Virus record (IMG/VR): IMGVR_UViG_3300026897_000014
Span: 1-27,310 of that record
Strand: one strand, 5' to 3'
Length of the DNA: 27,310 nucleotides
Origin: a virus
Lineage: Duplodnaviria > Caudoviricetes
Shown: positions 1-22,221 of the stretch, in pieces
Position numbering within the stretch: the stretch's first letter is position 1
How the letters are laid out: every line of letters begins with the position of its first letter
Translations under genes and position numbers: made by a program
The notes under the pieces: model-generated
The model's input: the letters and a program-made list of their open reading frames with translations, nothing else
The model's database searches: none
What the model was told of the DNA's origin: nothing

Positions 1-73
1 GCGCCTCGACGGCGCAGGGCTCGCCCTTCCGGCCGTGACGATCCCAGCGGTAGATGTAAGGCAAGTCGATCAC
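1..73 (-). CDS. Small phage hypothetical protein, N-terminal part (runs off the window start)
   Basis: GTG at 73 overlaps the ASCH stop (GTGA); reads MIDLPYIYRWDRHGRKGEPCAVEA with no stop to base 1. Confidence 0.6.
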   Translation of the reverse strand, partial: MIDLPYIYRWDRHGRKGEPCAVEA

Positions 74-555
74 AGCAGTGTCCCCTGCGGGTCGACCTGG
101 TGCATGACGTGCTGCTCCCGATCAGTCGGCAGCATCCACCGTGCAGGCGACGGCACATCCTCGGCTGGGCCGGGCTTCCATTCGAAGAAGCCGAGGGCGC
201 CGGCGCTGGGGATGAACGGGACCGGCTTGGCATCGGTGATGACCAGCCCGCGCGGTCCGAAGAACCAGGGGCTGTCCGATTCCTTGACGATGTCGACGAC
301 GCGACCAACGCCGACGATGCCGCCGCGCAACAGCTCGGCCGGTTGCGGCATGATGAAGCCGAGGTCGGCGCAGAATTCGGCGCAGTCCTCATATTCCTGG
401 CTGGTCATGCCTTTCGACGCGTGAATGGCGAATTCGCCACGAAATTTGAGGCCGGGGTTCGGCTGCCGCCACGACCGGTTTTCGATCGACTTCCACCCCA
501 TGACGACAGCGTAGGCCCATGGCTGGCGGATGGACAACGCGAGGCGGGGGATCAT
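70..555 (-). CDS. ASCH domain protein
   Basis: ALSIRQPWAYAVVMGWKSIENRSW (ASCH GxKxxExR motif), IHAS, GGIVG. Start set at 555 by ATGA overlap with the upstream stop at 552-554. Confidence 0.88.
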   Translation of the reverse strand: MIPRLALSIRQPWAYAVVMGWKSIENRSWRQPNPGLKFRGEFAIHASKGMTSQEYEDCAEFCADLGFIMPQPAELLRGGIVGVGRVVDIVKESDSPWFFGPRGLVITDAKPVPFIPSAGALGFFEWKPGPAEDVPSPARWMLPTDREQHVMHQVDPQGTLL

Positions 556-1064
556 GTCGGGCGCTCCCATGGGACAAGAGGAAGGTCATAAGACAGCGTG
601 AGCGGGTGCAGCGGCTGTCCGTCGAATGCCGTTCCCCAGCAATAGAGCGGGCATCCGACGCGATCGGCGATGGCTGCGACTTCGCGCCAGCGATTGCGCA
701 GACGGCGGGGCAGCTTGCCGAGTGTTCCCCAGCCGACGATATGCAGATCGGCGTCGCGCATGACCTGTTCGATGTGCTTGTCGTTGTCCGGCCCGACAGG
801 ATCCTCAGCGGCGCCGAGGTCGAAGATGTCAGTCGCGCGATAGGCAAACTTGTTGGCGATGATGAAACGGCCGATTCCTAGCCGGTCGGCGAAGCCATAC
901 CATTTGCGGATCGTGTGATCGTCATCCGCGGCGTCTGCAGTCGACGGGTTCACCATGATGCCGGCGGCGACTTTGCCCGTGCGGCAGAGGTCGCGTTCGA
1001 GCCTGAGGCGCCAGGTGCCGCAGTCGGACAGAATGGCGGACCGCCTGATGAGAAGGTCCGTCAT
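552..1064 (-). CDS. DUF1643 family protein
   Basis: SAILSDCGTWRLRLER, MVNPSTADAADDDHTIRK, NKFAYRATD, PLHPL motifs; ATGA-coupled start at 1064. Confidence 0.85.
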   Translation of the reverse strand: MTDLLIRRSAILSDCGTWRLRLERDLCRTGKVAAGIMVNPSTADAADDDHTIRKWYGFADRLGIGRFIIANKFAYRATDIFDLGAAEDPVGPDNDKHIEQVMRDADLHIVGWGTLGKLPRRLRNRWREVAAIADRVGCPLYCWGTAFDGQPLHPLTLSYDLPLVPWERPT

Positions 1065-1408
1065 GATGTCACCTGTCGGTCGGGTCCGGTCTGCGGGTTC
1101 TTGCTTGCAGTGTCCATCCATCTCTCGCCGTAAACGTGCACGACGCGCGTGCCGCGCTGCTGGAGCACGACGCCGGGCTTGCCTTCGCGCGTGACATAGT
1201 GGCCCTGCACCGTGCCGACGAAGCCGTCATGGTCGATGCGCGCCCATGTCCCGAACGGAACGCGCATGTCGGCTGGTAGGCCGACTTCCGCCCCGCGCAG
1301 GCGCAAGATTTCGTCGAGCAGGGCGTAGGCTTGATCGCTGGCGTAGACCGAGACAAGCCGCTGGGCGCGGTTCGCCTGCATCGCGGATATGATCTGGTCG
1401 ATGGTCAT
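1061..1408 (-). CDS. Hypothetical phage protein (115 aa)
   Basis: ATG at 1408 overlaps the RT stop (ATGA) with GAGGTG upstream; this is the 3' part of track ORF 1061..2119 (MTIDQIISAMQ...GFVGTVQGHYVTREGKPGVVLQQ). Confidence 0.75.
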   Translation of the reverse strand: MTIDQIISAMQANRAQRLVSVYASDQAYALLDEILRLRGAEVGLPADMRVPFGTWARIDHDGFVGTVQGHYVTREGKPGVVLQQRGTRVVHVYGERWMDTASKNPQTGPDRQVTS

Positions 1409-2388
1409 GATCTCACCTCGAGACTGCGGAGAAGGTTGCGGCTGTCGGCCCAGCCGGCGTGGCCGGTCCATGCGCCGAGGAACTTTTCCAGCCGCGCATG
1501 ATCGCCGGCTGCGCGGTAGGCCCTGATCTTTCGCCTGGCGCGGGTGACGCTGTCGCGGCGCAGCAGCTTGTGCGTCGGCCAGATGCGATAGCCGAGGAAG
1601 TTGACGCCGCGGGAGACCGGCTGGATGCTCCATTTCGAAAAGCGCAGGCCGAGTTGCTCGCGCGCCAGCGTCTCGATCGATGCCCGCACAGTGGCGAGGC
1701 GCTCCGACGATCGGCCGAGTACGACCATGTCGTCCATGTAGCGATACCAGTGTGGCTCGCGCAGCGTCTGGCCGAGATGCCGGTCGACGACGCCGCCATA
1801 GACGTTGGCGAAGATCTGCGACACCAGGCTGCCGATCGGCAGGCCCACACCTGTTCTGGGCAGCATCGCCTCGATCAGGCGGAGCGTTGCGCGGCACGAA
1901 ATCTTCGCCTCGATCAGCCGCCAGAGAACCGCCCGGTCGATGGATGCGAAGTAGCGTGAGAAATCGGTTTTCAGCGCGTAGAGCGGCTGGCCGTCGCGCG
2001 TCAGATGCCGCAGTTCGGCCTGCAGCAGCTTGACGCCGGCATGGGTTCCCTTGCCGGGTCGACAGGCGAAGGTGCGCGGCAAGAGCGTCGCATCGAAGAT
2101 CGGACCGACGACGGCGCAAAGCGCGTGCTGCGCGACGCGGTCGCGAAACGGCAGCGCGCTGATGGTGCGCAGTTTCGGGTCGAAGATCTGGAATTTATGC
2201 GGGACGCCCTGGACATAGGCGCCGGTGCGGATGTCCCGCGCCAGATCCTCGAGGTTGAGAGCCGAGAATTCCTTGAATTCGAGGAAGCCAGGCGACAGGC
2301 GCTTGCCGCGCGCGGTCAGCCGGTAAGCTTCGCGCATGTTGGCGTCGGCGGTGATTTGCTGCATGAGGTTGCGGTGCTTCTTCGCCAT
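1405..2388 (-). CDS. brt: DGR reverse transcriptase (Brt-like, 327 aa)
   Basis: YRYMDD catalytic motif, DGR-type GLPIGSLVSQ, KTDFSRYF, FRDRVAQHA, NFLGYRIW; no maturase or endonuclease extension. Confidence 0.96.
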   Translation of the reverse strand: MAKKHRNLMQQITADANMREAYRLTARGKRLSPGFLEFKEFSALNLEDLARDIRTGAYVQGVPHKFQIFDPKLRTISALPFRDRVAQHALCAVVGPIFDATLLPRTFACRPGKGTHAGVKLLQAELRHLTRDGQPLYALKTDFSRYFASIDRAVLWRLIEAKISCRATLRLIEAMLPRTGVGLPIGSLVSQIFANVYGGVVDRHLGQTLREPHWYRYMDDMVVLGRSSERLATVRASIETLAREQLGLRFSKWSIQPVSRGVNFLGYRIWPTHKLLRRDSVTRARRKIRAYRAAGDHARLEKFLGAWTGHAGWADSRNLLRSLEVRS

Positions 2389-2590
2389 CGCCGTCGCCTC
2401 AGATGCTCGCCGGTCGCGGGTTTCGATCCTTCGACAGGCTCAGGACTACTCCCCGCTTTACCGGACCTTGCAATGTGTTCGCCGAAGCCGGACGAGCGGG
2501 CTGACCACCCGGACGCGTTGCGCATCTGCGCTTGGCGTCCATGGCAGAAGGGCCGGCGAGGCCTTGACCGTCGCCGCGCAAGAAAGGGTC

Positions 2591-2709
2591 GTCACTGCGG
2601 CCGCGCGCGCCCAAGTTCTCGTTCGAGTTGTCCGGCCAGTTGTCGAGGTTCGCGTAGCGCGAGCCCGCGTTCTCGCCGTTGATCCAGGACCCGCCGAGGA
2701 TGGAGGCGC
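2591..2709 (-). repeat. DGR template repeat (TR)
   Basis: 119-bp ungapped match to 3160-3278 with 8 mismatches, all A in TR on the coding strand; 7 AAC codons; lies between avd and RT. Confidence 0.96.
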
Positions 2710-2727
2710 TCCGCATCATTTCCCCGC

Positions 2728-3099
2728 TCACCCGTTGCCCTTCGCGGTCTTGATCCACTGCCCGAGCATCGCGCCAGCCTCCGCTAGGTGGCGCAATGCC
2801 GTCCTGTGCTGGCTGGGCGAGATGATCTTGAGCGATGGCTGGGTCGCGAAGCGCAACCAGAAACGCAGCGTCGCCAGATTGGCGTCCGCCGCGTAAAGTC
2901 GTGATGGCTGCCCCGATTTTGCCGCCTGCCAGAACAGTTCGACCTGGTCGAACATGACCTTCATGATCGCGTCTCGGAGCGTGCCGTGGTGGCGCGGACA
3001 GCGTTGCAGGATGGGATAGAGATAGGTCACGGCCTGCTCGTATTTTTCGAGGATGGCCAGGCCCTTCGGCTTGGCGTTCTCGTCGCGGATGATGGTCAT
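2728..3099 (-). CDS. avd: Accessory variability determinant Avd (123 aa)
   Basis: ILEKYEQAVTYLYP...PRHHG...AAKSGQPSRLYAADANLATLRFWLRF...EAGAMLGQWIK, recognisably like BPP-1 Avd; positioned between VR and TR. Confidence 0.93.
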   Translation of the reverse strand: MTIIRDENAKPKGLAILEKYEQAVTYLYPILQRCPRHHGTLRDAIMKVMFDQVELFWQAAKSGQPSRLYAADANLATLRFWLRFATQPSLKIISPSQHRTALRHLAEAGAMLGQWIKTAKGNG

Positions 3100-3119
3100 G
3101 GGGCAAAATTTTTCGAAAC

Positions 3120-3139
3120 GCCGGCGCTTCCGCGCCGGC
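3120..3139 (-). promoter_or_regulatory. DGR target-recognition hairpin/cruciform downstream of IMH
   Basis: Perfect 8-bp stem GCCGGCGC-GGAA-GCGCCGGC beginning at the last base of the target stop codon. Confidence 0.85.
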
Positions 3140-4032
3140 TAGTTGGCAGGGTTCAGGTGGTCACTGCGGCCGCGCGCGCCCAAGTTCTCGACCGAGCTGC
3201 CCGGCCAGTAGTCGAGGTTCGCGTAGCGCGAGCCCGCGCTCCCGCCGCTGATCCAGGACCCGCCGAGGATGGAGGCGCAGGGGTTGTCGGGATCGCCGTC
3301 CGTGCCCCAATCCCAGAGATTGCCGGTCGCCTGCATCATGCCGAAGCGGCTGGTGCGCGGCGCGTCGAGGCCGGTGATTTTCGGATCGCGGCTGGCGGCG
3401 GTCTTTTCCGTCACGCCGAAGGCGGCGATGCGGAATTCGTCATAGGTGGGCGGCTGCTTGCCGTGATGGGCGAGGATGGCCGTCGCGGTGGCAAAGTCGA
3501 GCCTGTCGACCTTGCCTTTTCCGGCAATCGCTTTCGGCAAGTCGTTGCCGTCGGCGATCGTCACGCCGAACCGGCTGGTGCCGTCGGCCAGATGGTCGAC
3601 GCCGAGCTTGTAGATGTCCACCCACGCGCGCGCCCCGTCCGCCAGCATGATCGCGAACATGCCGCGCGGATCCGGGCAGGACGGGCGAAAGCCCTGATCC
3701 CAGATCGAGCACGGGTTGATCGCCGGGATGCTGTCGCCGCCGTTGCGCGCCTCGGCATTGCCGCCGGGAGCGAAGTGGAAGCCGCCGGCGACGTAGGCTG
3801 GCGCCGCAGTCTTGGCGGCAACGACGGTCAGCCTGTCGTCCTGCGTCAGCACGATGTCGAGGTCGGCGCCGGGAGCCATCACCGCCGGGTCGATCGGCAG
3901 GAGGAAATCCTCGGCGAAGCCGACGCGGAGCCTGCCATTGTCATGGATCTCTGTCCCGGCCCTGACGAAGATCGCATCGCGGCCCGCGGCGACGAAGATC
4001 GGGCGGGAGGAATCGCGGCGAATGATGTTCAT
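3139..4032 (-). CDS. mtd: DGR target protein, Mtd-like (beta-sandwich + C-type lectin fold), 297 aa, apparently lacking the N-terminal domain
   Basis: GGFHFAPGGNA, SIWDQGFRP..DPRGM, WVDIYKLGVDHLADGTSRFGVTIADG, HHGKQPPTYDEF, QATGNLWDWG, GARGRSDHL match recalled BPP-1 Mtd blocks; start 4032 has AAAGGA RBS (track start 4065); VR at the 3' end. Confidence 0.9.
   Translation of the reverse strand: MNIIRRDSSRPIFVAAGRDAIFVRAGTEIHDNGRLRVGFAEDFLLPIDPAVMAPGADLDIVLTQDDRLTVVAAKTAAPAYVAGGFHFAPGGNAEARNGGDSIPAINPCSIWDQGFRPSCPDPRGMFAIMLADGARAWVDIYKLGVDHLADGTSRFGVTIADGNDLPKAIAGKGKVDRLDFATATAILAHHGKQPPTYDEFRIAAFGVTEKTAASRDPKITGLDAPRTSRFGMMQATGNLWDWGTDGDPDNPCASILGGSWISGGSAGSRYANLDYWPGSSVENLGARGRSDHLNPAN
3160..3278 (-). 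repeat. DGR variable repeat (VR) with 16-bp GC-only element (3166-3181) and IMH
   Basis: Encodes ASILGGSWISGGSAGSRYANLDYWPGSSVENLGARGRSD versus TR ASILGGSWINGENAGSRYANLDNWPDNSNENLGARGRSD. Confidence 0.96.
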
Positions 4033-4074
4033 GTCGGTGTCCTTTCGGTTGAGGGGAAGTTGCATTTCGGGACT

Positions 4075-4491
4075 TCAGACGCTTCGATCGTGTTCGATCG
4101 CCTTGTCGGCTGGCTGGGTTCGCCAGTCGGGCCAAGTGCGCGCTTCGTTCTTCGCTTGCTTGGCAACAATCGCCGCGACGATGGTCTCTGGCTCCCATCC
4201 GGCGCGCCAAGCGTCGTCAAAGGTCAGAATGATGACGTCGACCCATTCCATGATATCGGCGGGATCGGCTTCGATCTCCGCGAGTTCCTTGCGAATGTGA
4301 TCGACAACGCCAGCCGTGCGCGTGCCCGGGCCAAAAGTGCGCTCGGAAAATTCGCGCTGGCGGCGCAGGTGTTCAACCAGGTTGAAGTCGCGGCTTTGCC
4401 TGTAGTGGGCAAGCGCCGCACGCGCCTGTCGCCATTCCTCGAGATATCGGTTGTTCGCCTCCAGCAGGTCGCGCTCGCGCTCCGGGCTCAT
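4075..4491 (-). CDS. DUF550 / dATP-dGTP pyrophosphohydrolase domain protein (MazG-like)
   Basis: HLRRQREFSERTFGPG..GVVDHIRKELAEIE..EWVDVIIL..DAWRAG..KQAKNEARTWPDWR; ATGA-coupled start at 4491. Confidence 0.85.
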   Translation of the reverse strand: MSPERERDLLEANNRYLEEWRQARAALAHYRQSRDFNLVEHLRRQREFSERTFGPGTRTAGVVDHIRKELAEIEADPADIMEWVDVIILTFDDAWRAGWEPETIVAAIVAKQAKNEARTWPDWRTQPADKAIEHDRSV

Positions 4492-4757
4492 GACTGCGCC
4501 CACATGATCAGCGCGATGGTCGCGCCTGCGACGGCGGCGAACAGGATCCACATCAGCAGCGCGAGCAGAACGATCGTCAGCGGGTTGAGCGGGCTCGCGG
4601 TGACGCCGTCGTCGGTTTCCTCGTCGGAAAGCCCTTCGGCGATGCGGAAGAGATGCTCGCTCGACGGCAGTTCGGCGGCCTTGCGGGCTTCGTCCCTGGC
4701 GTAGTTTTCCCGCAGGAAGAGCGCCGCCGGGTCGATGAATTCGTTGTTCGACATCAT
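4488..4757 (-). CDS. Small membrane protein
   Basis: GGGAGG RBS just after the dnaN stop; C-terminal hydrophobic stretch IVLLALLMWILFAAVAGATIALIMW. Confidence 0.7.
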   Translation of the reverse strand: MMSNNEFIDPAALFLRENYARDEARKAAELPSSEHLFRIAEGLSDEETDDGVTASPLNPLTIVLLALLMWILFAAVAGATIALIMWAQS

Positions 4758-4765
4758 GACCTCCC

Positions 4766-5905
4766 TCAAACGCGCATCGGCATCAGGACGAAGAGCGGCT
4801 GTTCGCCGTCTCCAACGGGCTCGGCGATGGCCGGATCACCGGGTCCGCCGAGGCGGAAGCGCACCTTGTCGGCGGTGACGGCGGCCAGCATTTCGAGCGC
4901 GTATTTGCCATTGAAGCCGATCTCGACGGTCGCACCCTCGCATTCGTCGATCGAGACCTCGTCGGTCGCGCTGCCGGAATCGGGGTTCGTCGTCGCCATC
5001 GAGAGCGGTCCGCCGGTCGCGTCGAAGCTCATCTTGACCGCGCTGCCCTTGCCAGTGGCCATGGTCATGACGCGGTCGAGCGCGGCGGTGAGCGCGACGC
5101 GGTCGAGCACGAACGAATTGTCATTGCCGGTCGGGATGACGCGTCGATAATCCGGAAAGGTGCCGTCGATCAGCTTGGACAGCAGCGTGCGGCCCGCCGC
5201 GTCCGCGAACATGATCTTGGTGTCGGACATCTGGATCGCGATGTCGCCTGCCGGCTTGTCGCCGATCAGCGATCGGATCAGGCCGACGGCGCGGCGCGGG
5301 ATGATGATGCCGGGCATCCTGTCCGGGTCGCCCGGCAGCGGCGTGCGCAGGCGCGCGAGGCGGTGGCCGTCGGTCGCAACGCAGGCGAGCTGGTCGCCGT
5401 CGGCATGCCAGTGGATGCCGTTGAGATAGTAGCGCGTCTCCTCGGTCGAGATGGCGAAGTCGACAGCGTCGATCATCCGCGCCAGCGTCGTGGCCGACAG
5501 GGTAAAGGCGTGCGGCAGGTCGCCGGTCGCCATCGCCGGAAAGTCGGCGGCGGGCAGGGTCTGCAAGCGGAACTTGGCGCGACCGGCGGTAACCGAAACC
5601 GCATTGGCGTCGACTGCCAGGCCGATCTCGACGCCATCGGGAAGCTTGCGCACGGCGTCGTGCAGCGTGCTGGCGTTGACGGTGAAACCGGCCCCGTCCG
5701 GGGCGTGTGCGGCGACACGGACGCGGATTTCCGTGTCGAGGTCGGAGCCGACGATCGTCAAGGCATCCTTGTCCTGCAGGATCAGCGTGTTCTGCAGGAT
5801 CGGAATGGTCGAGCGGCGCTCGACGGCCTTGGTGACCAGGGCCAGCGCGGGAAGCAAAGCCTCCCGCGCCACGATGATGTTGCCGGCTCCCTTGGCCATT
5901 TTCAT
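4766..5905 (-). CDS. dnaN: DNA polymerase III beta sliding clamp, phage-encoded
   Basis: VERRSTIPILQN, GSDLD, LHDAVRKLP, FAISTEETRYYLNGI, VATDGHRLA, SKLIDGTFPDYRRVIP, IGFNGKY, VLMPMRV. Confidence 0.96.
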   Translation of the reverse strand: MKMAKGAGNIIVAREALLPALALVTKAVERRSTIPILQNTLILQDKDALTIVGSDLDTEIRVRVAAHAPDGAGFTVNASTLHDAVRKLPDGVEIGLAVDANAVSVTAGRAKFRLQTLPAADFPAMATGDLPHAFTLSATTLARMIDAVDFAISTEETRYYLNGIHWHADGDQLACVATDGHRLARLRTPLPGDPDRMPGIIIPRRAVGLIRSLIGDKPAGDIAIQMSDTKIMFADAAGRTLLSKLIDGTFPDYRRVIPTGNDNSFVLDRVALTAALDRVMTMATGKGSAVKMSFDATGGPLSMATTNPDSGSATDEVSIDECEGATVEIGFNGKYALEMLAAVTADKVRFRLGGPGDPAIAEPVGDGEQPLFVLMPMRV

Positions 5906-8637: not shown

Positions 8638-8801
8638 GAACGCACCTGCTTGATCTTGGCGACGATCCGGCTTTGCGTCGGTGCGCGCGCGGATGCCGCG
8701 CGCTTGCCCGCTTCCTGCGGTGTCTCGGCCTCGATGTCGACCTTCGCCCCGTCGTCGAAATGGACGCGGAACGTGAAAACTGCGGGCGCTGTGGTGGCCA
8801 T
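8634..8801 (-). CDS. Hypothetical protein (55 aa)
   Basis: TGATG-coupled start; MATTAPAVFTFRVHFDDGAKVDIEAETPQEA. Confidence 0.65.
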   Translation of the reverse strand: MATTAPAVFTFRVHFDDGAKVDIEAETPQEAGKRAASARAPTQSRIVAKIKQVRS

Positions 8802-9559
8802 CAGCTGACCCTCGCGACGATGCCGAGGTAGCGCTCGAGCCGGTCGAGATAGGCGATCTCGGCCTTGACCGGCCCCCATGGCTTCAGCGAGCCGGTCAGA
8901 CGCGGCACACGCAGTTCCGCAGACGGAAGGCAGGCAGGAGCAACTTTGTCGAAGAAGTGATATGCCTCGGCAATCAGCATCCGGTTGTCCATCTCGGCCA
9001 CCTGGCGCGCGTAGATCGGCATGTGCTCGATTGGTGCGAGGCCGGCGACGCGGAAGACGACCCGGTCGATGGCATTCTTGGCGCACTCGATCGCATTCCT
9101 GATCGTCGAGGACGCTGCGGAGCGCCGGGCTGCCGGCATGGCAAGCTGGTGATAATGTTCGATCAGCTGGACCATCGGCCGCGTGATGTCGCCGGTGAAG
9201 GCCTCGTGCGCGTCGTGCAAGAGGAAATAGCCGGCAAGGACCTGGTCGCCGGTTTCGTTCATCAGCGCGTCGGCGCCCATGACGCAGTGCTGTCCGACCG
9301 AATAGGCCGCGCCCGGGTAGCGTCCGTTGAAGCGGGTGATCTTCGACAGGCCGTTGGCGATCTCGGTCCAGACAATGTCCGCGTCGCAGACATTGGCAAG
9401 ATCCATCGCCGAGCCATCTGGCCGGAAGGCAGGAACGATCGGCTTTGCCTCACGCCGCGCATCGGCGGCGTCGCCGCCTGCGGCTCCGGCGGGGCGGGCC
9501 ATGTGGCCCGACGGCCGTTGTTGCCCCAAGGTGGCGGCCTTGCGCTGCGCGGCCTTCAT
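8801..9559 (-). CDS. HD-domain 5'-deoxynucleotidase-like protein (YfdR/YfbR type)
   Basis: EIANGLSKITRFNG, YSVGQHCV, LLHDAHEAFTGDI, DNRML; ATGA-coupled start at 9559; the N-terminus is repeat-derived. Confidence 0.85.
   Translation of the reverse strand: MKAAQRKAATLGQQRPSGHMARPAGAAGGDAADARREAKPIVPAFRPDGSAMDLANVCDADIVWTEIANGLSKITRFNGRYPGAAYSVGQHCVMGADALMNETGDQVLAGYFLLHDAHEAFTGDITRPMVQLIEHYHQLAMPAARRSAASSTIRNAIECAKNAIDRVVFRVAGLAPIEHMPIYARQVAEMDNRMLIAEAYHFFDKVAPACLPSAELRVPRLTGSLKPWGPVKAEIAYLDRLERYLGIVARVS
9449..9550 (-). repeat. GTGAG multi-hairpin repeat, copy 3 (in frame at the HD protein N-terminus)
   Basis: gcaa ggccg...cggcc gtc gggcc-acat-ggccc gccccgcc ggag ccgc a ggcggc-gac-gccgcc gatgc gcggc gtgag. 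Confidence 0.8.
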
Positions 9560-10089
9560 GCGCCCACCTTCTGGAGCCCGGCGCCGACGCGGATGAGGAT
9601 GTCGGCGGTCATGTGGGAAAACAGCTCGGTGCGGTCGAGCACGCGGGCCAGAAGCGCCAGGCAGCGTTCGCGCTGGCTCGGCCACGGGTCGAGCTTCAGG
9701 GCGGCGACTGCTCGGCAATAGGCGTGCCAATCGACCGTGTAGGCCTGCGTCTGCGTTGCGCCGCGCGGCATCGGCGGGCGGTGCGCGATGGCTTCAAGCG
9801 CCTTGCGGACGATGTCGGGGGTCAGGTCGGGCATCGGCCGCGCCTGCGACACGAAGCGCTGGTCGGCGATCGTCTTGGCGGCCTGATGATGCTCGGCGAT
9901 CTCGGCCGCGGTGAAGCCGAGCTGAACCAGTTCGGCGACCGTCGCGCCGCCGCAGCCGCGCGCGGCGACGTCCAGCATCGCGTCGGCCAGCTCCTGCGCG
10001 CGCGGATGGACGGCTTCATCCGGAAAGGGATGCACAGGCCGCGTCTGCGCGGACGCGCGCGGCGTGAAGGTCTGGAAATGCGCCGTCAT
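9556..10089 (-). CDS. Hypothetical phage protein
   Basis: TGATG-coupled start (MTAHFQTF...), helical composition, GC-rich third codon positions. Confidence 0.7.
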   Translation of the reverse strand: MTAHFQTFTPRASAQTRPVHPFPDEAVHPRAQELADAMLDVAARGCGGATVAELVQLGFTAAEIAEHHQAAKTIADQRFVSQARPMPDLTPDIVRKALEAIAHRPPMPRGATQTQAYTVDWHAYCRAVAALKLDPWPSQRERCLALLARVLDRTELFSHMTADILIRVGAGLQKVGA

Positions 10090-10712
10090 CACAGCACCGC
10101 GACCATGAGGGCGATAAAGCCGATGGCGACGACGAAGCTTGCCAGTTCGCGCAGGGTGGCCAGCAAGTTCGCGCGGGAGTTGCGGCGGCCGGGAAATGTG
10201 CCAAGATGCCGCTTTTCGGGGAGGGCGAGGTGAAGAGCGTTCAACTGCTGCGCCGGAGCGATGGCGCGCTCGCAATCCGGGTCAACCCACGGAACTCTCC
10301 GCCAGTGGTGGTCGATCTCGACCCCGAGAACGCGGGCATCATTCTCAGCGGACTTGCGACGGCGCTCGCGGAAAGCGGCGATCTCGGCGTCGCCAACCGG
10401 GTGGTAGAGGGAGAGGTCGTCGCCGATCCGCCCAGCTTTTGTCCCGTCGCCTTGCCCGAGGTCATGGTCGAGAACAAGACGGGCGCGGTCGGCATGGTCT
10501 TCGCTCACCGATGGCTTGGGCCGGTTGCCGTCATGATCGGCCCCGAGGACGCGATTGCCCTCGGGCATGGCCTGATCCGAACCGCGAAGCACCAGGCGGA
10601 ATGAAGGTTCGAACGGGAAGAAGGTGCGATGCAGGCGTTCGAGCGGCAACTTGCCGCCGAGCGAGGCGGCGCGGGAGGCGTGGGACAGTCGGGGTGCTTC
10701 GGAAAGTGACAT
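10089..10712 (-). CDS. First ORF of the leftward operon, C-terminal transmembrane segment (true start uncertain)
   Basis: GGAG RBS before ATG 10712 and stop coupled to the next gene; ends ASFVVAIGFIALMVAVL; the middle is antisense to 10230..10604. Confidence 0.35.
   Translation of the reverse strand: MSLSEAPRLSHASRAASLGGKLPLERLHRTFFPFEPSFRLVLRGSDQAMPEGNRVLGADHDGNRPKPSVSEDHADRARLVLDHDLGQGDGTKAGRIGDDLSLYHPVGDAEIAAFRERRRKSAENDARVLGVEIDHHWRRVPWVDPDCERAIAPAQQLNALHLALPEKRHLGTFPGRRNSRANLLATLRELASFVVAIGFIALMVAVL
10230..10604 (+). CDS. Hypothetical protein, antisense to the leftward operon
   Basis: GGGGAGG upstream of GTG 10230; protein-like composition (KSVQLLRRSDGALAIRVNP...). Confidence 0.6.
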   Translation: MKSVQLLRRSDGALAIRVNPRNSPPVVVDLDPENAGIILSGLATALAESGDLGVANRVVEGEVVADPPSFCPVALPEVMVENKTGAVGMVFAHRWLGPVAVMIGPEDAIALGHGLIRTAKHQAE

Positions 10713-10745
10713 CGGGATGCTCCAGCGCGATTGCGATGGAGGCAA

Positions 10746-10796
10746 GTGATAATGCGGGTTTTATACCGCGTCAATACCGCAAGGTAAAAAACCCGC
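10746..10796 (-). promoter_or_regulatory. Leftward early promoter with two repressor operators (OL)
   Basis: GCGGGTTTTATACCGC (10754-10769) and AAGGTAAAAAACCCGC (10781-10796) match the OR consensus; TTGACG-N17-TATCAC on the minus strand. Confidence 0.75.
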
Positions 10797-10798
10797 GA

Positions 10799-11422
10799 TT
10801 ATTTTATGGGCAGGCCCAGCGCCGTAGCGAACGCTGCCGTCGCGCTTTCGCAAGAAGCGTAGGCCACGGCCCCCTTCGGCGTTCGCGTGATCCATGGGCG
10901 TGCGCGCGCACCGAGATGTTCGCGGGTGACGTCGCCGTCGATCTGAGCAACCGATATCCACGCGTCAGGTTCATGCGACAGGGCGAATTTCGGACTGACG
11001 CGCACTTTGCCGTATCTGGTCAGATCGTGCAGTGCGATCTCTCTCATCTGACCGGACGCGTCGTCGTGCAGCCGGACGATCCACCCAAGCGCCTCGATGT
11101 CAGCGGTATAGAGGCGGGCGGCGTCCGCGATGGCGGCCGCCGTGGCGCGTTCGCGGCGTGCCGGAACATAGGCGACCGCTCGCGCTTCAAGAGGGCTGCC
11201 ATCGCGCATGGCCCGGAGGTTCGAAACATCGTCGGATGGATGCACGAGCCGAGACACGTCGCCGACGACAAGCGCTGCCGCATGTTTGCAGAACTTGCCG
11301 CCCAGCCGTCCGCCCGGGCACGAGCAGAAGATCCTGAACGTCGGTCCTTCGCCCTCCGCGACAAGCTGGTAGGGCTTCTTGCCGGAGCCTTGCACCTGAA
11401 AGCGCAGCCGCCCGTCCGTCAC
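10799..11422 (-). CDS. SWIM zinc-finger protein co-transcribed with the repressor
   Basis: VQGSGKKPYQL...CSCP...FCKH (CxC-n-CxH); GTGA overlap with the cI stop. Confidence 0.8.
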   Translation of the reverse strand: MTDGRLRFQVQGSGKKPYQLVAEGEGPTFRIFCSCPGGRLGGKFCKHAAALVVGDVSRLVHPSDDVSNLRAMRDGSPLEARAVAYVPARRERATAAAIADAARLYTADIEALGWIVRLHDDASGQMREIALHDLTRYGKVRVSPKFALSHEPDAWISVAQIDGDVTREHLGARARPWITRTPKGAVAYASCESATAAFATALGLPIK

Positions 11423-12102
11423 AGCCCGAACAACTCGTTCAATGTCAGCACCTTGTGGACCGCTATGACGTGCGATTGATTGAGTTCGACCGTCGCTTCG
11501 GGATTGAGCTTGCCGACATAGATCTTGCTGCCACTGCGCCGCAGCAGGTGACCGATCATCGCTTCGACGCCGCCCGCTTCCGAATATTTCATCTGCACAA
11601 TGACTGAATCTCCAATCCGGGGCGGCTTGCCCGGATGAACGAAACGCAGGTCGCCGGGGCGATGCTCCGGTTCCATCGACGTTCCTTCGATGAAAAGCGC
11701 ATAGAGGTCCTTCGCGCCAGCCATCGCCGGGGGGCGGCGCGCCCAGTCGATCGCATTGTCGTCAAGCTGGAAGGCGCCCTTGAGATGCGACGCCGCCGCC
11801 GTGCCGCGCACAGGCACGTCGTTCGGCATCTGGGATGCTGGTGCGAGGCGGATATCGGCCCGCCGGACATTGCTTTTCGGATGGGCGTCCGCAACATCGG
11901 TCTTGGCTGTCAGCCATTCCGGCGTCGTCATCAGCGCTTGGGCGATCTTTTCCAGCGTGTCGATTCTTGGCTGGTCGCTCTTGCCCGTGAGGATGTTGCG
12001 GATCAGGTCGGGATTGGTCGAAACTTCGAGCGATGCGCCACGGGCCGACTTGCCGACCTGTTCAAGGCGCTGTTCAATCCGGGTCTTCAGGGCTTCGTTC
12101 AT
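11419..12102 (-). CDS. cI: CI-like repressor (HTH + S24 peptidase)
   Basis: N-terminal HTH (SARGASLE..PRIDTLEKIAQALMTTPEWL); S24-type LYALFIEGTSMEP..PGDLRFVHP; divergent from the cro-like gene. Confidence 0.9.
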   Translation of the reverse strand: MNEALKTRIEQRLEQVGKSARGASLEVSTNPDLIRNILTGKSDQPRIDTLEKIAQALMTTPEWLTAKTDVADAHPKSNVRRADIRLAPASQMPNDVPVRGTAAASHLKGAFQLDDNAIDWARRPPAMAGAKDLYALFIEGTSMEPEHRPGDLRFVHPGKPPRIGDSVIVQMKYSEAGGVEAMIGHLLRRSGSKIYVGKLNPEATVELNQSHVIAVHKVLTLNELFGL

Positions 12103-12105
12103 GAT

Positions 12106-12186
12106 GCGGTTATCCTACCGCTTTTGAGCGACGGTTGATTGCGGGAAAAAACCCGTTGACAGTGCGGTAAACAACCCGCATACAAT
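12106..12186. promoter_or_regulatory. Right operator: three operators and the rightward promoter
   Basis: GCGGTTATCCTACCGC (12106-12121), GCGGGAAAAAACCCGT (12141-12156), GCGGTAAACAACCCGC (12164-12179); TTGACA at 12156-12161 followed by CATACAAT at 12179-12186. Confidence 0.85.
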
Positions 12187-12212
12187 TGCGCCGTCATACC
12201 TGGAGTGTCATT

Positions 12213-12545
12213 GTGACCCTGATCGACCAGTTCGCCATTGTGGCCAATGCCTATTGCACCGCGCGCGACCTTTCCGTCGCCCGAGTTTCGACCATTGTCT
12301 TCAATGATGGATCGAAGCTCGGCGACCTGATGAGTGGCGCGGCCGATGTGACCACGCGCCGCTATGAAAAGGCGCTGCAGTGGTTTTCTGACAATTGGCC
12401 GGACAACACGGGATGGCCGGCGGAGGTCGCCCGACCCGAGACGCTGCAACAGAATGACGGTGAGGCCCCCAGCGCCGTCGAGGCCGGTTCCGTTCCCTCC
12501 CAAGCCGGAGCCGGCCACCCTTTGCTTGCGGAGCCGGCGGAATGA
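12213..12545 (+). CDS. cro: Cro-like regulator
   Basis: GGAG RBS, GTG 12213; LSVARVSTIVFNDGSKL...ALQWFSDNWP...WP pattern of alphaproteobacterial Cro-position proteins. Confidence 0.75.
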   Translation: MTLIDQFAIVANAYCTARDLSVARVSTIVFNDGSKLGDLMSGAADVTTRRYEKALQWFSDNWPDNTGWPAEVARPETLQQNDGEAPSAVEAGSVPSQAGAGHPLLAEPAE

Positions 12546-12604
12546 TCGCGCGCCGCAAGGATCTTCGCCCGGCGATGTTGCTCCTTCTGGAGCCATATGT
12601 GGCG

Positions 12605-18254: not shown

Positions 18255-20821
18255 TGACGACTGCAACGGGCGAAGCCCGCAAGTCCGACCGGACGCCGCG
18301 GCTCGTGCCGCGCCCGATCTTTGACAAGGATGGCGGAGCGCCAGGCGGCGCAGCCGCCGAAGCGGCGCGTGAGGCAAATGAGGTTCCCCTGATCGTTGAC
18401 AGTTTCGCTGGCGGCGGCGGCGCGTCGACCGGCATCGAGATGGCGCTCGGGCGTTCGCCCGACATCGCCATCAACCACAATCCGGCGGCACTCGCGCTGC
18501 ATGCGGCGAACCATCCCCACACGCTGCACCTGTCGGAAAATGTCTGGCAGGTCGACCCGCTCGACTATGTGCGCGGGCGGCATGTCGGGCTCGCCTGGTT
18601 CTCGCCTGACTGCAAGCACTTCTCCAAGGCCAAGGGCGGCAAGCCGGTCGAGCGCAATATCCGCGATCTGGCCTGGGTCGTGGTGCTGTGGGCGAAGCGT
18701 GTCCGGCCCGACGTGATCATCCTCGAAAATGTCGAGGAATTCCGCGACTGGGGTCCCTTGATGGAAGTCGAGCGGGCCAGCGCGAATGGCGATAGCAACA
18801 TCGTGTTGATGCCTGATCCCGCCGCGCGCGGCCAGACCTTCAAGCAATGGCTGAAGCAGTTGCGCAAGGAGGGCTACAAGGTCGAGTGGCGGGAGCTGCG
18901 CGCCTGCGATTATGGTGCGCCGACCATCCGCAAGCGGCTGTTCCTGATCGCCCGCTGTGACGGCCAGAAGATCGTCTGGCCAAAGCCGACGCATTATCCT
19001 CCGGCCTCACGCGCTGAAGGCGCTCCGGAGAGGCGCAGCAAAAGCCGCGGCGGCCGGTCGACCGCTCGGACTTCGTCCGACAAGCCGGATTACAGTCAGG
19101 CAACCAAGCCCTGGCGGACGGCGGCGGAGATCATCGACTGGTCGTTGCCGTGCCCGTCGATCTTCGCCACCGGTCCGGAAATCATGGCCGAGCACGGCTT
19201 GCGCGCCGTCCGTCCGCTGGCCGATGCGACGATGTCGCGGGTCGCGCGCGGCGTGAAGCGCTACGTGCTGGACGCGAAAAAGCCGTTCCTGGTCAACCTG
19301 ACGCATGGCGTTCGCACCGAGGATCTGGACAGCCCGTTCAACACCATCACCGGCGCGCATCGCGGCGAAAAGGCGGTTGTGTCGCCGTCGCTGGTTTCGG
19401 TCGCGCATGGCGACAGCGGCGGCAGGCGGGAATATCCGCTGGATGATCCGTTCGGCGTCGTGACCGCCGGAGGCATCGGCCATGCCGTCGTCGCGCCGTC
19501 CGTCATCAAGTTTCAGACCGGTTCGACCGGCAGCCCTGTCGACGAACCGCTGCACACGATCACCGCCAACAGCTTCAAGAAAAAGCCCGGCGGCGCGGCG
19601 CCGGTGGGCGTCATCGCGCCGGTGTTGTCGGCCTATTTTGGTCGCGGCGATGGTTCCGATGACAGGTCCGCATCGCTCGCGGACCCTCTGAAAACGGTGG
19701 TCACGGAAAACCGCCATGCTGTCATCGCCCCTGTTCTTTCCTATGCCCAGCAAGGCGGGGCCAACCGCAGCGTCGAGGATCCCGCGCACACGATCACAGC
19801 CAGCGCGAAAGACCAGAACACGCTGATCGCGCCGACGCTGATTCAGACCGGCTATGGCGAGCGGGAAGGGCAGGCGCCCCGCGCGCTCGACCCTCAAGCG
19901 CCTCTCGGAACCGTCGTCGCCGGCGGCGTGAAGCACGCGGCCGTCATTCCGACACTCGTAGGCTGCGGCGGACGCGCCGGGCAAAGCCGTGCGCGCGGCG
20001 GCGACGAGCCGATGGCGACGCAGACCGCCAAGGCGGATGTCTGCGTCGCGGCTGCCTTCGTAGCGCAGCACAACAATGACAGTCGGCGCGATGGCGGCGT
20101 GAACCCCGGCCGTCCCGCCGATCAGCCGATGTCGACGCTGACGGCAAACCCGCAGCAGGGCGTTGTCGCCGCGCACCTGATGACCATGCGCAACGCGCAG
20201 AAGCCCTTTCAGGGCGCGGACGAGCCGACGCACACGATCACGGCTGGCGGGGCAGGGCAGACGCTGGTCAATGCCTTTGTCTCACGCCAATTCGGTGCAT
20301 CAATTGGCCACGGTCTGGACGAGCCATCCGCAACGGTGACCGCTGGCGTGAACAAATCCGCGATCGTCGCGCCCTTCATGCAGAAATATTACGGCACCGG
20401 CGACGGCGCCCGCGCCGACGAGCCTCTGCATTCGGTCACGACGAAGGACCGGTTCGGCTTCGTTGAGGGCGAAATTGTATGGCCACCGTTCACCGAGGCG
20501 CAGGCCGCGCGCGCCCGCCAGGTCGCCGATTTCCTGCGCGCGCATGGCTTCTGGGATGAGAGGGAGTTCGTGACGCTGTCGATCGGCGGCGACCTCTTCA
20601 CCATCGTCGACATCGGAATGCGCATGTTGGTCCCGCGAGAACTGTTCTCGGCGCAAGGCTTCCCGGTCAATTACGTCATCGACCTGGAATTCAACGGCAA
20701 GCCCTTGCCGAAGGACGCCCAGATCTCGTGCTGCGGCAACAGTGTGTCGCCGCCGCTCGCCGAAGCTCTGGCCGGGGCGAACTGCGCCCACCTGGCCGTT
20801 TACCGGGAGGCTGCCGAATGA
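18251..20821 (+). CDS. C5 cytosine DNA methyltransferase with a repeat-expanded variable region (856 aa)
   Basis: DSFAGGGG (I), SPDCKHFS (IV), ENV (VI), RKRLF (VIII), RML..REL..AQGFP (IX), GNSV (X). Confidence 0.93.
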   Translation: MMTTATGEARKSDRTPRLVPRPIFDKDGGAPGGAAAEAAREANEVPLIVDSFAGGGGASTGIEMALGRSPDIAINHNPAALALHAANHPHTLHLSENVWQVDPLDYVRGRHVGLAWFSPDCKHFSKAKGGKPVERNIRDLAWVVVLWAKRVRPDVIILENVEEFRDWGPLMEVERASANGDSNIVLMPDPAARGQTFKQWLKQLRKEGYKVEWRELRACDYGAPTIRKRLFLIARCDGQKIVWPKPTHYPPASRAEGAPERRSKSRGGRSTARTSSDKPDYSQATKPWRTAAEIIDWSLPCPSIFATGPEIMAEHGLRAVRPLADATMSRVARGVKRYVLDAKKPFLVNLTHGVRTEDLDSPFNTITGAHRGEKAVVSPSLVSVAHGDSGGRREYPLDDPFGVVTAGGIGHAVVAPSVIKFQTGSTGSPVDEPLHTITANSFKKKPGGAAPVGVIAPVLSAYFGRGDGSDDRSASLADPLKTVVTENRHAVIAPVLSYAQQGGANRSVEDPAHTITASAKDQNTLIAPTLIQTGYGEREGQAPRALDPQAPLGTVVAGGVKHAAVIPTLVGCGGRAGQSRARGGDEPMATQTAKADVCVAAAFVAQHNNDSRRDGGVNPGRPADQPMSTLTANPQQGVVAAHLMTMRNAQKPFQGADEPTHTITAGGAGQTLVNAFVSRQFGASIGHGLDEPSATVTAGVNKSAIVAPFMQKYYGTGDGARADEPLHSVTTKDRFGFVEGEIVWPPFTEAQAARARQVADFLRAHGFWDEREFVTLSIGGDLFTIVDIGMRMLVPRELFSAQGFPVNYVIDLEFNGKPLPKDAQISCCGNSVSPPLAEALAGANCAHLAVYREAAE
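18268..18373 (+). repeat. GTGAG multi-hairpin repeat, copy 5 (in frame at the methylase N-terminus)
   Basis: gggc-gaa-gccc gcaa gtcc-gacc-ggac gcc gcggc-tcgt-gccgc gcccg...ggag cgcc a ggcggc-gca-gccgcc gaagc ggcgc gtgag. Confidence 0.82.
19006..19080 (-). repeat. GTGAG multi-hairpin repeat, copy 6 (antisense, in frame inside the methylase)
   Basis: Minus strand: tcggac-gaa-gtccga gc ggtc-gacc-ggcc gcc gcggc-tttt-gctgc gcctctcc ggag cgc cttca gcgc gtgag. Confidence 0.78.
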
Positions 20822-22221
20822 TCACGCTTCTGAAATCTGCCGCCGCCATGGCGATACTGCTGTTCATGCCCCCAGCGCCAGCTCTGGCGCAGTCGAGGCC
20901 GAACTTCGTCATGATCATGACGGATGACCAGGACCTCGCGTCGCTTGCCTACATGCCGAAAACCCGCGCGTTGCTCGCCGACAAGGGTGTGACGTTTTCG
21001 AACAATTTCGCGCAGTTCCCGCTGTGCTGCCCCTCGCGCGCGACCATCCTGTCGGGCCAGTTCGCCCACAACAATGGCGTGCGTGGCAACTCGCCGGTCT
21101 GGAATGGCGGATATGCGGCATGGAAGCCGACAGAGGGCAACTCGCTGGCGCCATGGATGCAAAACTCAGGATACCAGACGGCGTTCGTGGGCAAGTATCT
21201 GAACGATTATGAGCGGGAAACATACTATGTGCCGCCCGGATGGGCGAAATGGCGCGGATTGAAGAAGGTCAACTATTGGGGATGGATCGACTATAATGGC
21301 GACGGAACGCTCAAGACAGGGACGGGAGCAGAAGAAGACTACCTGACGGACAATCAGACGAAGCGGTCGGTCAACCTGATCAAGTTCGCCGAGCCGCCGT
21401 TCATGAATTTCACCTGGACGTTCGCGCCGCATGTCGACACGGGCACCACGACCGCGATCCCGGCACCGCGCCACACAGGCCTGTTCGACGCGATCGCCAT
21501 GACGCGTTCGCCAGCCTTCAATACGCAACACACGACCGGCAAACACCCGCTGTTTGCCGCCTTTCCGCCCCTGTCGCCCGCCTCCGAAGCGGCGGCCGAG
21601 ATCAACTGGCGGCGCTATACCGAAAGTCTGCTCGCGGTCGACGACATGGTCGAGGCCATCGTCAACCAGCTCACCGTGAGCGGCCATATCAACAATACCT
21701 ACATCATCTTTACGAGCGACAACGGAAATCTCCATTGGGAATTCAAGCGCAATGAAAAGCTGCTGCCCTATGAGAGGTCGATTCGCACGCCGCTGATCAT
21801 CCGCGGCCCGGGCGTCCCGCAAGGCGTGACCCGCAACGAACTCGTGCTCGACGCCGACCTGACCGCAACCATCCTCGACCTCGCCGGAACCGCCTACGGC
21901 CGCGTGCTCGACGGCAAGAGCCTGGCGCCGCTGCTGTCGACCAACGCCGTGCCGTGGCGCAGCGCCGTGTTCCTGACCGGCCTTTATGACGGCGGCCAGG
22001 TCTATGATCAGAGTTACACGCGATGGAACGCGGTGCGCACGGCGACGCGGAAATATATCCGGGCCAGCGACGGGCACGAGGAGCTTTACGACCTCGACGC
22101 GGATCTCTGGGAGCGGTTCAGCGTCGTGGCGGATCCCTTCTATGCGGGCGATCTCGCGGCTCTGCGCGCGCTCGAGGCACAACTGAAAACCTGCGCCGGC
22201 GCGAGCTGTTGGGTGGAATGA
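20818..22221 (+). CDS. Secreted Cys-type sulfatase (467 aa; resembles the N-acetylglucosamine-6-sulfatase type)
   Basis: Signal peptide MITLLKSAAAMAILLFMPPAPALA-Q; RPNFVMIMTDDQD, CCPSRATILSG (CxPxR), GYQTAFVGKYLN, NTYIIFTSDNG, ELYDL; ATGA-coupled to the methylase. Confidence 0.92.
   Translation: MITLLKSAAAMAILLFMPPAPALAQSRPNFVMIMTDDQDLASLAYMPKTRALLADKGVTFSNNFAQFPLCCPSRATILSGQFAHNNGVRGNSPVWNGGYAAWKPTEGNSLAPWMQNSGYQTAFVGKYLNDYERETYYVPPGWAKWRGLKKVNYWGWIDYNGDGTLKTGTGAEEDYLTDNQTKRSVNLIKFAEPPFMNFTWTFAPHVDTGTTTAIPAPRHTGLFDAIAMTRSPAFNTQHTTGKHPLFAAFPPLSPASEAAAEINWRRYTESLLAVDDMVEAIVNQLTVSGHINNTYIIFTSDNGNLHWEFKRNEKLLPYERSIRTPLIIRGPGVPQGVTRNELVLDADLTATILDLAGTAYGRVLDGKSLAPLLSTNAVPWRSAVFLTGLYDGGQVYDQSYTRWNAVRTATRKYIRASDGHEELYDLDADLWERFSVVADPFYAGDLAALRALEAQLKTCAGASCWVE

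Follow-up and report, generated by a model that had tools for sequence, protein, structure and literature searches.

What does a diversity-generating retroelement (DGR) diversify when it lies among the early genes of a temperate phage? Phage DGRs are taken to tune tail proteins, and the few published non-structural targets are unexplained second targets. The DNA analysed here, 27,310 nt of IMG/VR virus record IMGVR_UViG_3300026897_000014 (Duplodnaviria; Caudoviricetes) and called the window below, is the early half of a temperate phage with a CI-type repressor, a leftward arm and a rightward arm; annotation of this stretch found no structural genes. The leftward arm carries a DGR for which a preliminary description had proposed an early, possibly intracellular target. 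That the target is early, and probably not part of the virion, is supported indirectly by its missing anchor, an early position throughout its clade, the unrelated tails of the phages that carry it, and the coexistence of anchored and anchorless forms. To one reading we give a probability of roughly 0.5: once the prophage is induced, the target would be made as a hypervariable binder free in the cytoplasm, with host defence proteins as its most likely ligands.

Each sequence feature tested confirms the cassette as a complete, intact DGR of the BPP-1 type. All its parts lie on the minus strand in the order target, avd, template repeat (TR) and reverse transcriptase (RT). Domain matches and the alignment of the TR with the variable repeat (VR) agree with the earlier placement of a complete DGR between DUF550/dnaN/ssb and DUF1643/ASCH. 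In window positions, the parts are:

3139..4032, minus strand: DGR target, a 297-aa Mtd homologue with a β-sandwich and a C-type lectin domain, without the N-terminal β-prism
4040..4045, minus strand: ribosome-binding site ahead of the target start, read from the sequence
3156..3278, minus strand: VR, with 8 changes opposite TR adenines and 1 at the end of the initiation of mutagenic homology (IMH)
3166..3181, minus strand: GC-only tract of the IMH, 16 nt, with an identical tract in the TR at 2597-2612
3120..3139, minus strand: target-recognition hairpin after the target stop, with an 8-bp GC stem and a GGAA loop
2728..3099, minus strand: avd accessory gene, 123 aa (PF22296, E 1e-28; NF033474 above cut-off)
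2587..2709, minus strand: TR with 24 adenines, from the TR/VR alignment
2389..2586, minus strand: TR-RT spacer, predicted from covariation to be the structured part of the DGR RNA
2399..2719, minus strand: short open reading frame (ORF) through the TR and spacer in the VR frame, ending 10 nt before the RT, inside ORF 2399-3106
1405..2388, minus strand: DGR RT, 327 aa, with YMDD at residue 217 (PF00078)

The TR and VR are the top repeat family of the window. Over 123 nt, 8 of the 24 TR adenines are changed and only 1 of the 99 other positions, a bias with a chance of about 6e-6 (calculated by hand), and the sole non-adenine change sits at the 3' IMH end. The two repeats diverge 3' of the 16-nt GC tract, giving the IMH/IMH* difference. 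The GC tract, the hairpin and the GRNA loop rule were defined for BPP-1 in PMC3240598. A hairpin stem of at least 6 bp is present in 49 of 76 relatives (46 with a GRNA loop) versus 8 of 304 control windows (none with GRNA). A 26-sequence alignment of the spacer predicts 43 pairs, 15 of them with compensatory changes. The spacer of one relative (locus L072, ~8700-10000) is 754 nt long and has small ORFs within it. All 48 early loci examined for it have an in-frame ATG ahead of the TR, and the frame from this ATG is open into the RT in 39 of the 48 (the other frames in 15 and 4). It may be that the TR is translated, either to extend the RT or as a coupling leader.

The DGR of BPP-1 (mtd-avd-TR-brt; NC_005357) is alike in gene order, Avd, RT (the window RT is 54% identical to Brt), adenine-specific VR, GC tract and GRNA hairpin, and its Mtd (PDB 1YU0-1YU4, 2IOU) has the same β-sandwich and lectin fold. 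BPP-1 mtd, however, lies after the tail-fibre gene and before the lysis genes and its product has the β-prism (PF18454), whereas the window cassette is early, its target lacks the prism, and its relatives often have two or three targets.

The target matches Mtd with E 2e-47, and its residue 4 pairs with Mtd residue 58. The target model (pLDDT 92.6) has a TM score to 1YU4 of 0.86 over the query and 0.69 over Mtd, and the VR falls at the C-type lectin fold's C-terminus. Because an in-frame stop lies 14 codons upstream of the target start, there is no room for a β-prism, and an upstream start that would restore one is excluded. Attachment to the tail presumably goes through the prism (PMC10743442), which together with the sandwich also favours formation of the Mtd trimer (PMC6328139); a homotrimer prediction of the target scored 0.20 versus a mark of 0.42 and was not used. 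The Mtd_N domain (PF18454) is matched by BPP-1 Mtd but by none of the 66 aligned targets. NCBIfam gave no match for the window target, and a domain search of the aligned targets found no fused effector domain. Judged by sequence, the window target has the β-sandwich and lectin feature of an Mtd-type tail receptor-binding protein and lacks two of the defining ones, the tail anchor and the tail-gene location. The 'major tropism determinant' labels that databases put on early anchorless targets may mislead.

The early position is common to a clade. Scans gave 26 viral loci, the best 80 of 126 viral loci in a second scan, and 66 genome loci; 78 were left after removal of near-copies, short contigs and long-target loci, and among these a few prophages appear twice, once from each of two collections. 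Loci were sampled for their likeness to the window, a choice that favours finding the clade but not a shared context. Genes of relatives were called by a custom script and part of the neighbours were labelled with PHROGs; some 'TGT' labels (L137, 251 aa; L118, 111 aa) came from faulty clustering and were disregarded. None of the 78 loci has a labelled structural gene up to 10 genes upstream, while 72 have early markers near the RT and 40 an integrase downstream; head or terminase genes follow six to eight genes downstream in 10. The cassette occurs in either early arm across the clade. Two targets are found in 46 loci, one in 29, three in 2 and none in 1. In the RT tree a single branch with SH-aLRT 99 separates the early RTs from the rest; L149, which has no context, is labelled structural there by default, and in the target tree L157_S0 is a wrongly included long branch. 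Close loci with named hosts come mainly from Hyphomicrobiales (Mesorhizobium, Rhizobium, Shinella, Bradyrhizobium, Nitrobacter and others), and we take the host of the window phage to resemble them. Non-pathogenic lysogens among the strains identified include Bradyrhizobium sp. YR681, Mesorhizobium sp. SP-1A, Shinella pollutisoli KCTC 52677 and Rhizobium sp. BK602. No cultured phage of the clade was found among 50,697 records. When synteny was compared, as the preliminary description had suggested, all three phages found with the same early arm had no cassette in it, which fits an accessory gene.

Two loci carry three tandem targets (L114, 10932-12810, and L116, 9055-11843), and in L114 two of these are identical outside the VR. 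L102 (9959-12076; Mesorhizobium norvegicum) has no avd and encodes a target-RT fusion of 705 aa, which probably arose through a VR-TR deletion that preserved the frame.

In the window, the cassette lies downstream of DUF550 (PF04447), dnaN, DUF2303 and ssb, and is followed by a gene of 115 aa, then DUF1643 and an ASCH-like gene; the leftward arm also encodes an HD phosphatase. Genes from 10712 to 70 share one orientation and most overlap or nearly touch (the gene call at 10089-10712 is uncertain). The RT stop overlaps the ATG of the next gene by 4 nt, the coupling described earlier. The control elements are:

10746..10796, minus strand: predicted leftward promoter, read by eye, with two operator-like sites (10754-10769 and 10781-10796)
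11419..12102, minus strand: CI-type repressor (peptidase S24; PF00717)
12106..12179, strand not assigned: three operator-like sites at the cI/cro switch, from a repeat pattern search

Operator-like repeats are thus found both at the start of the leftward arm and at the cI/cro switch; the search pattern was taken from these same sites, so the shuffle test is partly circular. The leftward promoter is absent from the promoter scanner's list, and the promoter and terminator scan of the window was not above shuffles (1 versus 1.4 and 11 versus 9.6). The co-oriented genes and operator-like repeats agree with the proposal of a repressor-controlled leftward strand. We infer that transcription runs through the cassette from this promoter.

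Predicted repression in the lysogen bears on a further possibility, that the target is an intracellular binder of proteins of competing phages or mobile elements and not of host defences. The evidence from location and from the missing anchor is the same for this as for the host-defence reading, and one to three separately diversified paralogues would suit it. However, repression in the lysogen would limit use on incoming phages, and no effector domain is fused to the target. We consider this possibility quite unlikely.

The preliminary description had also considered that the cassette may serve a remote target. A remote tail target finds no support here. No second VR was found in the window. 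Thirty-five whole records were searched with a profile that recovered every early-type TR; in all 14 early-type records with a completeness of 90% or more, two of which are one phage, it matched nothing except the early targets and the TR. The remote targets that do occur in relatives (L115/L120, L107 and L130) are anchorless and lie in the other early arm. Since the window contig has no structural genes, the place of its own tail module is presumed from relatives. The seven mapped records have their own, mutually unrelated tails with their own fibres, four of tail-fibre/J type and three with baseplate or sheath.

An additional tail Mtd was found in one of 32 early-type records, G010, which combines an early cassette with an anchored tail Mtd that is cut by the contig end just before the VR. 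A sister-phage gene 93% alike to it has its own avd downstream and a VR that does not match the G010 early TR. It is unlikely that the early TR of G010 also targets its tail Mtd.

A contig binned as Cellvibrionaceae (L137, 9962-10915, and L148, 9482-12723; the bin taxonomy may be wrong) encodes two Mtd proteins: one anchored, 484 aa long and belonging to a tail DGR surrounded by baseplate and sheath genes, the other anchorless, 317 aa long and located ~25 kb off, where its neighbours are CII-like, methylase and replication genes. One TR matches both VRs, with 15 of 26 adenines changed in the tail Mtd and 11 of 22 in the early Mtd. In the trees, this contig's RT falls close to the early clade's base (support 86) and its early target beside the late group. 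This suggests a route from a tail DGR to a remote early copy and then to relocation of the machinery, the direction of which is only inferred because the trees are unrooted.

These observations also bear on whether the target is a virion accessory, that is, a head decoration or auxiliary spike encoded early and held by the β-sandwich, with the DGR tuning adsorption as in BPP-1. The fold and the match of all 66 aligned targets to the tail family phrog_11262 agree with it, as do the Mtd genes with short N-termini inside head and tail modules and the surveys that read phage DGR targets as mostly tail proteins (PMC8144416, PMC5758913). On the other hand, no locus of the clade follows structural genes, one protein family accompanies unrelated tail types, anchored and anchorless forms coexist under one TR, and the target tree places the short late variants apart from the early group. 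We regard a virion accessory as a minority possibility, although the strongest among the rivals.

Several points weigh against a free intracellular target. Late modules, too, contain Mtd variants that have just 4-26 residues ahead of the β-sandwich: in L151 in a terminase-portal context, in L161 in a portal-head morphogenesis context, in L160 after a head-tail adaptor, and in L155 (9998-11026) after a tail fibre and chaperone, with no RT. A missing prism alone is therefore no proof of absence from the virion. In L151, L160, L161 (~9800-12600) and L155 each short Mtd is preceded by a small gene of 52-146 aa; these small genes, or the short Mtds themselves, are possibly decorations or split anchors. 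The 76 clade targets are 287-319 aa long, a range partly by construction since starts were picked near that of the window target (two relatives had none there); the best 120 of 1,232 database hits, which are independent of the choice of start, are 287-330 aa. One mildly hydrophobic 19-mer occurs in 9 of the 76. PADLOC gave no match for the target or for six window neighbours. The trees are quick and unrooted, and support for the intermediate is weak at 86.

Surface receptors, moreover, are the only known ligand class of the Mtd fold, and the fold binds surface ligands in BPP-1 (PMC5758913). The target could conceivably be a soluble lectin that the cell sets free on lysis, or that is made inside it, with the role of masking receptors or debris or of preventing superinfection, and the short Mtd of L155 lies between tail and lysis genes as might suit such a role. 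Against this, no lipobox was found in the 76 targets and no signal peptide is visible in the aligned N-termini, the operator-like sites predict repression in the lysogen, and late expression would suit release better. A soluble lectin appears improbable, somewhat more so than a virion accessory.

Across 79 TR/VR pairs of the clade, aligned with a tolerance for A mismatches, 901 of 1,839 adenines differ and only 63 other positions. Relatives 90-98% alike carry different VRs, and identical copies carry the same VR. Contigs of the probable source run are identical to the window over 1-5443 and are not independent evidence; they show one VR allele, but contigs drop rare variants. Outside the VR, dN/dS of the target body is 0.08-0.40 in 36 of 37 pairs (which are not independent), by which measure the scaffold is under purifying selection. 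Such selection, together with the conserved hairpins and spacer and the remote targets kept far from the RT, speaks against a selfish or stranded cassette with the target as a passenger. The cassette is dispensable in related phages and moves between arms, and one locus has decayed to the target-RT fusion, as a passenger would allow; even so, we consider this very improbable.

Amino-acid choice at VR AAC codons is strongly non-independent (chi-square 95), and here enzyme bias is indistinguishable from selection. In early-clade VRs, a second-position T with an unchanged first A was observed 2 times versus 25 expected, and a second-position G mostly accompanies an unchanged first A; this pattern could be an RT bias. 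Aromatic enrichment in early versus tail VRs was not significant (86/416 versus 6/49, p 0.19).

For a free cytoplasmic binder, the following sequence of events would apply. Target, Avd, TR RNA and RT would be made from one repressor-controlled leftward transcript, so that mutagenesis and protein would both begin at induction or infection. As established for DGRs, RT and Avd would copy the TR RNA, making errors opposite its adenines, and the VR would be replaced by the resulting cDNA. Selection would favour progeny whose lectin tip is useful. At its origin the family was likely a second, remote target served by a tail DGR, with the machinery moving beside it afterwards. The counter-defence part of this reading draws on the neighbourhood and on general knowledge of lambdoid early arms; the target's position and its lack of export signals are consistent with such a role. 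A bolder version, which we hold more tentatively, is that the target is a free intracellular 'antibody': one to three scaffolds per genome would carry hypervariable lectin tips as an early-expressed library, diversified anew with every induction, selection would favour tips that neutralise host defence proteins, and genomes in which tail and early targets share a template would record the transition.

Second targets away from structural genes have been described before. Distal second VRs of gut phages, in Quimbyvirus (PMC8008677) and in four prophage species (PMC12629997), lie near methylases and counter-defence genes, and both papers propose a role in phage-host conflict. The use of a BPP-1-type DGR on an early anchorless target does differ from that in BPP-1, as had been suggested, but is less new than it seemed given these reports. 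In those gut phages a tail-linked DGR has the distal gene as its second target, whereas in the early clade the whole machinery, and all targets in the 14 near-complete records, are away from the tail module, the scaffold derives from Mtd and the hosts are mainly Alphaproteobacteria. The tgt2 proteins of tentaclin DGRs (PMC10743442) are likewise lectin targets without the β-prism; they differ in also having no β-sandwich, belong to gut phages and are proposed to bind host cells.

One member of the early clade is already catalogued as Mtd/tail-type from homology alone, which touches on a refuting condition named in the preliminary description. Table S1 of a GenBank DGR survey (PMC5758913) lists Bradyrhizobium sp. 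YR681 (NZ_AKIY01000214.1), which is locus L126, in category 'a' (Mtd domain), a category read there as tail-diversifying and Mtd-like in size. Its row is blank for structural homologues within 20 kb, and anchor loss and early position are not noted in the portions of the survey text and rows covered here. The portions covered of PMC11792537, PMC8867640, PMC11661182 and PMC10053308 hold nothing on the early clade, and a literature search did not find it described, with most subscription journals and the data tables of PMC8144416 (which may list members) outside its scope.

Other genes of the arms deserve mention. The rightward arm of the window encodes a CII-like protein, GcrA, two methylases, a primase and a D5-like protein. 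A sulfatase gene with a hydrophobic N-terminus (20818-22221, plus strand) lies between the C5 methylase and DUF982, and no match to it was found in the first 98 related loci. A SWIM zinc-finger gene (10799-11422, minus strand) directly follows cI, a slot that often holds lysogeny or immunity genes. DUF5131 (phrog_2045) is a common neighbour in many early arms, such as L032 (11636-12775), and also occurs in arms without a DGR; it matches the PADLOC candidates PDC-M41B and PDC-M30B.

Throughout a clade, an early protein without an anchor is what the DGR mainly acts on. A homologue has been solved, the model is confident, and there are natural pairs with and without the cassette as well as named cultured lysogens, so that the role of non-tail phage targets becomes directly testable. 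If the ligand is a defence protein, the cassette would be a counter-defence system of programmed diversity and its target a binder scaffold compatible with the cytoplasm. The same early layout recurs in dozens of alphaproteobacterial prophages, and it is likely that these phages diversify a free protein that would act inside the infected cell and not on the virion.

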